Part shown: piece by piece, positions 23,878 through 61,512 of the stretch
Layout: every line of letters begins with the position of its first letter
How positions within the stretch are numbered: the stretch's first letter is position 1
Assembly (NCBI RefSeq): GCF_037042905.1
Contig: NC_087250.1
Coordinates: forward strand, 5,644,001-5,708,000
Direction: 5' to 3'
DNA length: 64,000 bases
DNA from: Lytechinus pictus
Taxonomy: Eukaryota
Made by a program: the position numbers and the translations under genes
Notes under the pieces: model-generated
The model's database searches: none
What the model was told of the DNA's origin: nothing
Seen by the model: only the letters and a program-made list of their open reading frames with translations

Positions 23878-24997
23878 CAGTCGGATCTACGGGGGGGGGG
23901 GGTATAGGACGCATTTGCCCGTATTCTTAAGTCAGGTTTAACTCAAACCATGGTCTATAACTCTGTGCAAATATTATGGAAAGCCAAATACGTCACATTT
24001 TTCCTTACATTGTATGTTTCTTACATTTACTATACACTTTCCTGGCTCGTGAATGGTGAAGAAAGCTATCTTATCTACCCTTCCGCAACAGTTAAAATGA
24101 TTTGAGAGAAAAATTACCTGACACATTGAAATTATAATGTTAGAGATTTATGTCACTATTGGCTCTCTATAGTTAAACCACAACTTTAAACCAGGGTTTA
24201 ATTTAAACCCGACTTCAGAATATGGGCCACTACGTCTCGGCTAATCGTTATTGGGTCAAACCAAATTGTCAAACCCCCCACTTAGCAGAAAGCTAGATCT
24301 GCCACTGCATGTTAATGTATTGTGAAATCAAGTGACAGTTTGAAATGTCATGATACCTTCCTTCAAATTTATATAGGAAAAGCATTGTTTATAATTTGTA
24401 TACAACTGCACTGTTTATTATAATTTTATGAACCTTTAAGTACTGTTCACTGTAAAAACGCTGTTTAAAATTAAGCGCGTCGTTTAAGCCCGTCACTCTA
24501 ACAACTACTGTTTAAACTTTTTAAACAACTGTTTGAACTTTTTAAACAAGTTGTTTAAAAAGATTAAACAATTTTAAACAAGTTTAAACAACTTGCTGTT
24601 AGAGTGACAGGCTGAAACAACGTGATATTTTTACTGTGTTGTTAAAACAGTTTCAACATGTTTAAAATCTTCAACAATAAAGTTTGATTCTTACTATTTA
24701 ATTCTCACTACATTAATTATGCATGTTTGTTTTCACCTGTTAAACTACAGGTTCATGATTAAACAGCGTTATATAAGCCTTTTCTACTGTGTAGCTCTCG
24801 ATGTTAATGAAATTCGCAGGGATATTCTTTTTTCACCCTCTTACATTAATCCAAATAAAACTCATTTCTATTTTATACGACGTATCTATGTTAAACATAT
24901 ATTAATCGATACGCGGCTGGTGTGTTTATCATTAGACTATTCTAGACATGCTTGATGTGTTTTCCGTTTTGCCCTGCTTTTATTGTAATTTTTAACT

Positions 24998-25165
24998 GTG
25001 TGTATTTGAGTTTTGTCAGACGTGTTTCAATCAGATATGATTATTTACGTCTGGGACCGACCTTTAACGTCACCATCCGAAAGACGTGACCGGGGCTCGA
25101 ACCTCTGCATCAATTTGTAACTTCCCCACAGCTTGGATTACAGGCGCACGCCACAACGCCCAGTT
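24998..25165 (-). mobile_element. SINE with a 7SL (Alu-domain)-like head, B-box and Nin/Deu-like core
   Basis: Minus strand reads AACTGGGCGTTGTGGCGTGCGCCTGTAATCCAAGCTGTGGGGAAGTT…GGTTCGAGCC…GTCTTTCGGATGGTGACGTTAAAGGTCGGTCCC; flanking repeat tttttaact at 24989-24997 and 25170-25178. Confidence 0.7.
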
Positions 25166-27479
25166 TTTTTTTTTAACTATGGACTTATATTGATTTATAT
25201 TCAGAGCCGTAGTCTTTCTTGAGGGGCGTCCTTTTTGAAGCCTTTGTGCTTATAATTGTCCCCTCCCATGCAATGATTATTTATTGTTATTTTACCGTGA
25301 AAAAAATTGGCACTATATTTTATGTTATATGATCATTTTTTTGCATGGAAATAAAGAATCAATCAATCAATCAATTGTTCTATTGAACATTTTTAATTTC
25401 TATTTGTAATTGATAAATTTTAATAAGTTATTTATTTCAGGGGACTCACATAAACGAACGATGCTTTCTTACTTTCCAGTGAGTTCCCTTTTTTCATTTC
25501 TTTTTATTCATATTCTGATCTGTTCCTACTTACTTTGTCACTTTGTTTGAAATGAAGAAGAATAAATTCAATCAATCAATAAGTAAATCATAATGGTTTT
25601 TGTTAGTCTCGGTCATGTTCGCTCATTTGGTTTACTGCTTGCCTGCTAGTATAAAGTATACTTACGCAGACCCTATTGCAAATCAAAATCAATTCAGGAC
25701 TCGATATTTACTCCCTCAAACTGTAGCTATATTATAAATATCAGTAGGCAAAGCTTTATAGTACAAGAACATTGTTACTTTCAACATTAAATGCGTTAGT
25801 TAAGTTTGTTTGGACTGTATTAATTGTTTCAAATGAAAAGGGTCTATAGGAACGGAAACTATAAACGTATAGTCACGTGACGTTGTAAACAGAAATATGC
25901 CATGCATGTTCTGCCTGCTCGATCTCAAAGTTGGGAGAAAATGAGATGTAACCATTATACCAGTCATAAAGATGTATACATCAAAATGTAGGTAATCTAT
26001 TTAGCATTGAGATGACAATCAATCTTGACCTTTTTTACCCTTAGGGATATTCCAGTCAACAAAGGTGCCTGTGTCTCGAAAATACGGGTGGTTTCAAACA
26101 GTTTGCCATAGCAAGATTTGTAAACATGGACACTTTCAAATGAACAGCGAGACGTAAATAGTTAATTAATCGTAATAATATTTACCTCAAATTAATGGAA
26201 TATGATAAAGATTTTCACACTATTATCAATCTGGTGTGAGATAATTAATAGTTATAAAGATATTCCCGGATTTCTGCAATATTACGTTCATGAAAACCAC
26301 TGTTCCCTGTGTTGAAGCTGTGTGTGTGGACTTTCGGACACTCAAATGCACGCGACTAACCATTATGCAATCAATCATCATCATCTCACTGGCATGGCCT
26401 TCATTTTCATCATTATCACCATATCCTCATTCATATCATCTCCATCTTCATCATTATAAAATTATGAACAAAAGAGCATTTCTTTTCTGCTTCATAATTT
26501 ATTTGTTCATTTATTCCGGGGTTGTCATTTTTTCAAGCAATCTGCTTATAATGACAATTCCTCTCCTGCAAACTGTAAAAATGTTTTTTTTTTTTTTGTT
26601 GGTAGTTGATCATACTTGTTTATATAGAATGACTTTTTTATTTAGTATTTTTTTATGATTCATACCAAAATTAATTACCGATATATTATGTTTGTTACGT
26701 AATGATAATTGTATTGCAAACGAATGTCATGAAAGCGGAAGAATACAATAAATCAAATCAAATATAATATAATAGGCCTACATGGGGACATGGGCATGAT
26801 ATCAAGACAGAAAGAAGAAAAAGAATTCCATGCCGATATCAAGTGCGCCCTCTATTGAAAGGTAAACACGGTATGGAGTTCTGCTTCTGCTCGAGAAATT
26901 TCTTTGGTAAGATCTGCATTTGGCCTCTGAAATAAACCGTTATTTATTAGCATTTCGTTTGAATAATGTTATTTTCCTCATTGACTGTTTGCCTTAACAC
27001 ACGTGTAAGTGCCATTGAATCAAAAGTTCGATTTATTGTAACGCAACTTATTCAAGAAAAAGCTGATGTGATCTGAGCTGCGACTTCGTAGTAAAAACAA
27101 ATCACAGTCCCATGCTATTTAAAACCGTGTCGTAATTATTGTAATGCATGAATGTAATTAAGGAGCCACAGCCTGTCCACCCAAGGGCAAGGCCAAGCCG
27201 TTCATTACATGCCGCCTCGCACAGAAAAATCAAACCATAGAAGTCGGGTGTAGTTGACATCAGAAGTGAGATCCCAGCATAGTTTATACAAACCTCGCAA
27301 TACGTGTGAGTGCCCATAGTCACTCTAGGCGACACCCCAATACTTACCCGTGCTAATAAACTGGGACTCCACTCACGCGCATTTGGGCCGCCCTAGCTTA
27401 GAACTAACTGACTAAGCAATATTATCTAGAAATTGTTACATTGTAGTCATTAAATATGTTCTATTAAATAAATTGATAA

Positions 27480-38022: not shown

Positions 38023-61512
<23,490 letters not shown>

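Follow-up and report, generated by a model that had tools for sequence, protein, structure and literature searches.

A SINE copy of about 170 nt lies on the minus strand of the window, the whole 64,000-nucleotide stretch of sea urchin DNA analysed here, and runs from position 25164/25165 to about 24998. Alignment to Rfam and to the host's own genes shows that nt 1–45 are a copy of the start of the host 7SL (SRP) RNA. The remainder of the element, that is the linker, box B, Deu-like body, 3′ hairpin and (CA)n tail, is shown by alignment to be unrelated to 7SL. Judged by its sequence, the element represents a single copy of a sea urchin SINE that is non-autonomous and was active in the recent past. 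We put a probability of about 0.8 on the overall reading, which is that of a fused, 7SL-headed SINE mobilised by a LINE, with a head that probably binds SRP9/14.

The window copy and its 7SL-derived head

Read on the minus strand, the element starts with AACTGGGCG.. and ends with ..ATACACACA, and its parts follow in the order 7SL head, 16-nt linker, box B, body, 3′ hairpin and CA-ending tail. These parts and the flanking repeats are located as follows.

25170..25178, minus strand: upstream 9-bp direct repeat AGTTAAAAA, a putative target-site duplication; the longest flank match of this copy is 9 bp
25120..25164, minus strand: 7SL-derived head with closing stem (helix 2), helix 3 and its loop, UGUAAU turn and helix 4, including the 7SL box-A region; assigned from RF00017 positions 1–44 and identity to host 7SL
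25104..25119, minus strand: linker TACAAATTGATGCAGA between head and box B, with no significant likeness to 7SL nt 46–299
25093..25103, minus strand: candidate Pol III box B motif GGTTCGAGCCC, a consensus match; an 18-mer over box B and its junction occurs 876 times in the genome
25051..25091, minus strand: body segment GGTCACGTCTTTCGGATGGTGACGTTAAAGGTCGGTCCCAG, Deu-like by eye; a body 21-mer occurs 1,025 times
25018..25052, minus strand: predicted 3′ stem-loop with outer stem AGACGT/ACGTCT and inner stem AATCA/TGATT, supported by folding and compensatory changes
24998..25017, minus strand: 3′ end GACAAAACTCAAATACACAC followed by the (CA)n tail, which is very short here; a tail 29-mer occurs 829 times
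24989..24997, minus strand: downstream direct repeat AGTTAAAAA, the other half of the 9-bp flank match

Four to five additional A's (25169–25165) separate the upstream direct repeat from the start of the element. The copy is about 99% identical to its nearest relatives in the family. Downstream of box B it reads ..CCCCGG versus ..CCCTGG in the family consensus, and its terminal letters are ..AAACTCAAATACACAC(A). The body motif GTCTTTCGGATGGTGACGTTAAA occupies 25085–25063 on the minus strand. The promoter motifs within the element are the 7SL box-A region at nt 5–14 and the box B GGTTCGAGCCC at nt 62–72, and TTTT is absent inside this short form of the family.

In a permissive Rfam scan of positions 24900–25300 (401 nt), the head aligns with the Metazoa_SRP model (RF00017) over model positions 1–44, at 31.2 bits and an E value of 1.6e-6. 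A scan of the whole window at gathering threshold returned no match, because this score lies below the RF00017 gathering score of 70. The head retains the consensus structure of the model, from the closing stem and the looped helix 3 to the unpaired UGUAA and helix 4, in agreement with the helix 3 and U-turn that an earlier note on this DNA had recognised from the letters. All the sequence features named in that note are present in the element.

A search of the genome assembly (812 Mb, 368 contigs) found seven full-length host 7SL genes at 272–283 bits: contig 10 carries three in tandem, contig 1 a further three, and contig 12 a single gene. Over nt 1–31, the SINE agrees at 30 of 31 positions with the start of every one of the seven (by BLAST, six as separate 31-nt matches), and over 46 nt the head agrees with the variant 7SL gene on contig 12 at 42 positions. 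Together with the RF00017 match, these identities bear out the proposal that the head is the 5′ part of a 7SL Alu domain. The ACU/AGU closing stem is common to the SINE head and the contig-12 gene, whereas the other six genes carry ACC/GGU. The compensated stem, which the earlier note (AACT/AGTT) took to speak against a human Alu, thus goes back to a variant that exists among the host's genes, and the comparison shows a gene like the contig-12 variant to be the nearest source of the head. Contamination by human Alu DNA is excluded: the head fits the host 7SL, beyond its match to the metazoan consensus, and host DNA flanks the copies.

The likeness to 7SL stops at nt 45–46, and helix 5 and the 3′ half of the Alu domain are missing. 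Comparison of SINE nt 46–100 with the remainder of the 7SL gene gave p values of 0.2–0.98 under strict and permissive scoring, and 7SL nt 121–299 showed no similarity to the element (p 0.37–0.98); local alignments were likewise empty. Homology of nt 46–100 to the 7SL interior had been suggested by a MAFFT alignment, but alignment scoring gave no support and the idea was rejected. Thermodynamic folding gave a z score of −0.10 for the full element and +0.84 for the head alone, with only helix 3 present in the head centroid. These predicted energies are uninformative, favouring neither presence nor absence of the Alu fold.

The host had been described as an invertebrate-type genome, and this is correct: it is a sea urchin, with a Bindin gene (PF02084; L100/L101) at about 14.345 Mb on contig 13, where two exons score 236.7 and 53.1 bits. 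Elsewhere in the window, a 611-codon open frame at 47066–48901 on the minus strand matches RVT_1 (E 1.3e-8) and, weakly and below the cut-off, GIY-YIG (E 3.8e-4); these domain matches mark it as part of a broken Penelope-like retroelement. A long simple repeat of period 12 at 45111–45950, which reads as FFLS/KERK in translation and leaves several frames open, is not a gene.

Copy number, subfamilies and the long form

The head 25-mer occurs exactly 833 times (414 forward, 419 reverse) in the 812-Mb genome and 1,577 times with up to three mismatches, which gives at least 1,577 head-bearing copies; the reversed control returned 0 in both cases. The box-B, body and tail words counted above also had reversed controls of 0. 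A 181-nt query yielded 1,593 first-look candidates, 40 of which were scored; the best 40 of the 1,593 places are 97–100% identical and spread over many contigs. Hundreds of copies share the head–body junction, and they occur on every large contig in both orientations. These counts substantiate the reading of the window element as part of a multi-copy SINE.

To characterise incomplete matches, 50 places were sampled where one of the words was present and another missing (20 body, 20 box-B and 10 tail). The 20 body matches without an exact head comprise ten copies with mutated heads, three with partial heads, one long form with a head, and six that are 5′-truncated and have unrelated DNA upstream. 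Recognisable heads are present in 14 of the 20 box-B matches, the others being truncated or rearranged, and a tRNA-like 5′ part was found in none of the 20. Seven of the ten tail-only matches are full copies with mutations and three are truncated. The CA-ending tail that had been noted for the window copy is indeed present there, and the length of (CA)n varies between copies.

Head-to-tail arrays of four to seven SINE units, 83–98% identical, were found on contig 18 (L013, 3952125–3953138) and contig 19 (L016, 10865245–10865951). These arrays indicate that some copies spread at the DNA level, in a satellite-like manner.

The formal definition of SINEBase, in the accessible part of that source, asks for a length below 1 kb, at least 100 copies, and at least 60% identity to a tRNA, 5S rRNA or 7SL over at least 60 nt. 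The family is about 170 nt long and interspersed, its head word occurs 833 times exactly and 1,577 times when up to three mismatches are allowed, and its likeness to 7SL ends at nt 45–46, short of the 60 nt. Of the features of SINE1, the 5′ part comes from 7SL RNA, as found here, while the retention of both 7SL ends to give a complete Alu domain is not seen, the 3′ end being undetected by alignment. A tRNA-like head, which defines SINE2, is absent, and the box-B motif alone is tRNA-like. The missing 7SL 3′ end and the short overlap set the family apart from plain members of the 7SL SINEs.

Older copies, about 91% and about 87% identical to the young form, have GTTCGAG duplicated in the box-B region and carry different helix-4 loops, which are nearer to 7SL (AGCTACG.. 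versus AGCTACT.. in 7SL). The pairing of helix 4 and of the closing stem is preserved across subfamilies that differ in loop length. One C of the helix-4 loop, present in 7SL and in the older subfamilies, is missing from the young one; this base is a partner in a loop–loop pair.

A long form of about 340 nt shares head, box B and tail with the short form, and its copies show about 80% identity to L042, the long copy that was sampled. It carries an extra insert of 165 nt with two TTTT runs; taking this insert out of the long form gives the short form, and CCC(T)GG is found at each edge of the deletion. From the T-runs we infer that the deletion would have taken out Pol III stop signals and so aided the success of the short form. 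The insert (TGGGGAGCGTTTCATGAAAGGACTTGTCGGACG...) is a repeat family in itself, with 1,541 first-look candidates (L042, L062–L066), and its unit also occurs in tandem without SINE parts at L066.

Older SINE copies were also observed near the 7SL genes themselves. Each of the three tandem genes at about 7.91–7.92 Mb on contig 10 (L031, L035, L036) has one upstream in the same orientation, 80–88% identical to the young form and ending 37 bp before the start of the 7SL gene, just ahead of a conserved upstream promoter motif. At L031 a second older copy lies about 410 bp farther upstream.

Box B, body, 3′ hairpin and tail

The assignment of a tRNA-type box B holds for the motif, which matches the consensus, but not for a tRNA-headed parent family, which was not found: none of the 40 sampled copies revealed a tRNA-headed sibling or parent with the same box B or body. 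An nhmmer search with the body over 277 kb returned old copies and a related tail unit, and nothing else.

A conserved box-B-like GGTTCGAGTC(C) together with GGTGTC lies 20–45 nt past the terminator in six of the seven host 7SL genes. On its sequence and position, this box B may act as a Pol III promoter element outside the gene. A comparable arrangement with a downstream box B is present in yeast SNR6. In the genes on contigs 10 and 1 (L031–L036) the two motifs are accompanied by a second T-run, and the spacers have otherwise diverged; the gene on contig 12 is without the downstream element. SINE nt 52–85 align with the 7SL 3′ flank at 25 of 34 positions with one gap, at p 0.005–0.03 before correction for 24 tests, and the match is mostly box B itself; the linker has a weak similarity to this flank at the same uncorrected p 0.005–0.03. 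As a weak lead, and in speculation only, the box-B segment of the SINE may derive from the 7SL 3′ flank. If this were true, a deletion would have made an extragenic promoter element internal and thereby given birth to the SINE.

The body had been likened to the Nin/Deu SINE core. It does recall printed bivalve Deu-domain sequences, but this comparison was by eye only. The start of the Deu domain in the bivalve BivaMD-SINE1, as printed in the accessible parts of the reports (PMC4824008, PMC4758252), resembles about 40 nt of the sea urchin body by eye; the motif of the sea urchin body that recalls it reads GTCACG..TCTTTCGGATG..GAC.TTAAA..GGTCCC. In the genome, the bivalve SINE motif has three matches, and a pattern for the bivalve-type Deu variant has one match against one in the reversed control, which is chance level. 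A bivalve host was rejected on these low counts and on the Bindin gene.

The 3′ hairpin, AGACGT..AATCA-TATC-TGATT..ACGTCT, is predicted in MFE and centroid folds alike. Relative to a retroposed unit of about 65 nt, two of its pairs are altered on both sides, and in the hairpin alignment 92.8% of cells are paired, whereas controls with slid partner columns reach no more than 48%. The compensatory changes support a LINE that recognises structure, and on these predictions the hairpin is a putative recognition site for a LINE reverse transcriptase. The unit of about 65 nt consists of only a tail-like hairpin and (AAC)n, and has a constant start base and unrelated surroundings; there are about 358 first-look candidates (L103–L106, L021). 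It may be a minimal LINE-tail parasite. A LINE body was found upstream of this unit in none of four places. A LINE bearing the SINE tail was not found either, the ten sampled tail-only matches all being SINE copies; a Pfam RVT_1 profile search of the genome listed 150 places.

Target-site duplications are the exception in this family. Among the 30 best copies, flank repeats of at least 7 bp occur in four (3.4% for mismatched flank pairings) and of at least 9 bp in three (0.7%); one further copy, L093, has a duplication of 14 bp. The duplication of 9–12 bp proposed in the earlier note thus stands for the window copy, where 9 bp are clear, but is not typical of the family. Short or rare target-site duplications, 5′ truncation and a tail of hairpin and simple repeat fit LINEs of the CR1/L2 type rather than L1.

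Many copies lie a few to about 25 bp past the motif AAGACTAC (for example L003, L009, L021, L023, L027, L044 and L084, and also L010, L105 and L106), which belongs to a different arrayed repeat (..GAAATAACTGGGTCTGGAGGAAAGACTACGCTATAT..). This adjacency could reflect either a preferred target or 5′ chimeras formed by template switching.

Proposed mechanism, alternatives and relation to known 7SL SINEs

In the mechanism that we propose, the family most likely arose when the 5′ end of 7SL was fused to an older retroposon body, by template switching or deletion, and the short form would have been born later from the long form of about 340 nt by loss of the 165-nt insert. Pol III would start at nt 1, directed by the 7SL-derived box-A region and the box B about 50 nt downstream, and the Pol III unit of the short form would be free of an internal T4 terminator. 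A LINE of the stringent type, probably from the CR1/L2 group, would supply the reverse transcriptase that recognises the 3′ hairpin and simple-repeat tail, and would insert copies of the SINE RNA at new sites by target-primed reverse transcription. Frequent 5′ truncation, tails of varying length and target-site duplications that are short or missing would be explained by such a process. The head probably binds SRP9/14, since it retains the fold of the 5′ Alu domain, and would thus bring the RNA to ribosomes that are making LINE protein, as has been proposed for Alu. Because the helix 5 half is absent, this binding may be weak or irrelevant.

The role of the head is where the most serious alternative arises. 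It is quite conceivable, at odds somewhat short of even, that the head is 7SL-derived but merely donated a Pol III start and box A, plays no part in SRP9/14 binding or ribosome targeting, and kept its fold only because the piece is young and short. The missing 3′ half of the Alu domain would agree with such a donor, as would the folding results, which reveal no special stability, and the changed helix-4 loop of the young subfamily; moreover, stringent-type LINEs recognise a 3′ hairpin and may do without ribosome targeting. However, the retained piece stops exactly at the closure of the 5′ Alu domain (ACU/AGU stem) and not at the end of box A, and helix 4 and the closing stem are preserved across subfamilies of different loop length. 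In addition, the accessible text of Moldovan, Yin and Moran (bioRxiv 2024; PMC11760393) reports that SRP9/14 is bound by a 5′ Alu domain of 46 nt, which Alu retrotransposition requires.

A second alternative concerns novelty only. The family could be real but already catalogued in Repbase or Dfam, for example as a Strongylocentrotus SINE2-n_SP or SURF1 and perhaps as tRNA-derived, in which case the novelty would lie solely in how the head is interpreted. We regard this as unlikely, though worth some weight. Sea urchin SINEs have long been in Repbase, the box B could prompt a tRNA label, and the body is Deu-like. An accessible table (PMC3747384) gives SURF1/SINE2-4c_SP, the DeuSINE SINE2-3_SP and SINE2-8_SP tRNA heads and CR1/L2 partners; these families have the host group in common with ours, for which CR1/L2-type partners are likewise expected, and are set apart by their listed tRNA heads, as far as a comparison by description alone can tell. 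Against prior cataloguing of a 7SL SINE stand the specialist papers up to 2026, which in their accessible parts limit such SINEs to supraprimates, hagfish and shrew mole. Kojima 2020 (PMC7245038) presented SINE1-1_EBu of hagfish, which formed as a chimera with an older SINE, has an RTE partner and keeps both 7SL ends, as the first 7SL SINE beyond Euarchontoglires; Kojima 2024 knew SINE1 solely from primates, rodents and hagfishes; and Kosushkin et al. 2026 (PMC13023118) added the shrew mole and traced all such SINEs to a central deletion of about 183 nt. No report of a 7SL-headed SINE from sea urchins or other echinoderms occurs in the accessible literature, and motifs of the element were met in papers and supplements only as an unrelated primer and the bivalve Deu sequences; this comparison covered the literature.

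It is very improbable that there is no SINE lineage at all and that the copies are independent chimeric 7SL retro-pseudogenes, a satellite spreading at the DNA level or human Alu contamination: the tandem arrays on contigs 18 and 19 and the rarity of clear target-site duplications could be read in this way, but a single head–body junction is shared by hundreds of dispersed copies, which form subfamilies and have variable tails and 5′ truncations, and the match to host 7SL beyond the metazoan consensus and the host flanks leave little room for it. Hardly credible is the idea that the head descends from a tRNA, has degenerated and looks like 7SL through chance or convergence, since, for all that a tRNA-type box B follows the head and invertebrate SINEs are mostly tRNA-derived, ARAGORN found no tRNA in the window and Rfam none at E values up to 10 in 24900–25300, so that a tRNA does not fit better than host 7SL, with its identities of 30/31 and 42/46 and its gene-specific compensated pair.

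The fused, 7SL-headed and LINE-mobilised SINE that we favour has its nearest counterpart in SINE1-1_EBu of Eptatretus burgeri. As far as the accessible description goes, that family is also young, joins a 7SL piece to the body and tail of an older retroposon, numbers a few thousand copies, ends in a simple repeat and was born independently outside Euarchontoglires; its mobilisation by a non-L1 LINE can be likened to that proposed here. The hagfish SINE differs in retaining about 140 nt of 7SL from both ends, with the full Alu domain and the box B of the gene, whereas the sea urchin family keeps 45 nt and has a separate consensus box B. In the hagfish, the tail is of the bipartite RTE type with (AAC)n and the target-site duplications are about 17 bp, in contrast to the (CA)n and the mostly short or absent duplications found here.

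Alu, B1, FLAM and Tu of supraprimates and Urop of the shrew mole, in the accessible text of PMC13023118, share with the sea urchin family a 7SL 5′ head with the box-A region and the 5′ domain that in Alu binds SRP9/14, and also a GTTCGAG-type box B about 50–60 nt downstream. They differ in the central deletion of about 183 nt with the 7SL 3′ end kept, in the poly(A) tail and in the use of L1, and all are mammalian. The engineered minimal 5′ Alu domain of 46 nt described in the available part of PMC11760393 covers a stretch nearly identical to the sea urchin head, the first 45–46 nt, but it is no natural family: it was made in the laboratory by deletion from human AluY, is expressed from a Pol II promoter and depends on L1 for its mobilisation.

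With 7SL SINEs reported in the accessible literature only from supraprimates, hagfish and shrew mole, an independent birth is the natural reading, which supports the earlier suggestion of an independently born family. The fuller claim, that an echinoderm independently evolved a 7SL-headed SINE which keeps only the 45-nt 5′ Alu domain and combines it with a separate consensus box B and a hairpin tail suited to a non-L1 LINE, is possible and is put forward tentatively. The piece that it keeps would be the minimal one for which SRP9/14 binding and a requirement in Alu retrotransposition were recently shown in human cells.

7SL SINEs include the best-studied human mobile elements, and their independent origins are extremely rare. 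Subject to a check against repeat databases, the sea urchin lineage would be the first invertebrate 7SL SINE and the first that retains the 5′ domain of the Alu fold alone. The family bears on which part of 7SL a SINE needs, and on whether ribosome targeting through SRP9/14 aids retroposition by non-L1 LINEs, in an animal that is tractable by embryo injection, extracts and recombinant proteins. Young and abundant as it is, the family could also provide a marker for echinoid phylogeny and population studies. If the head works via SRP9/14, nature itself would have defined a minimal Alu domain, and the hijacking of ribosomes through the SRP Alu domain would be a general strategy, open to different phyla and workable with different LINE clades.
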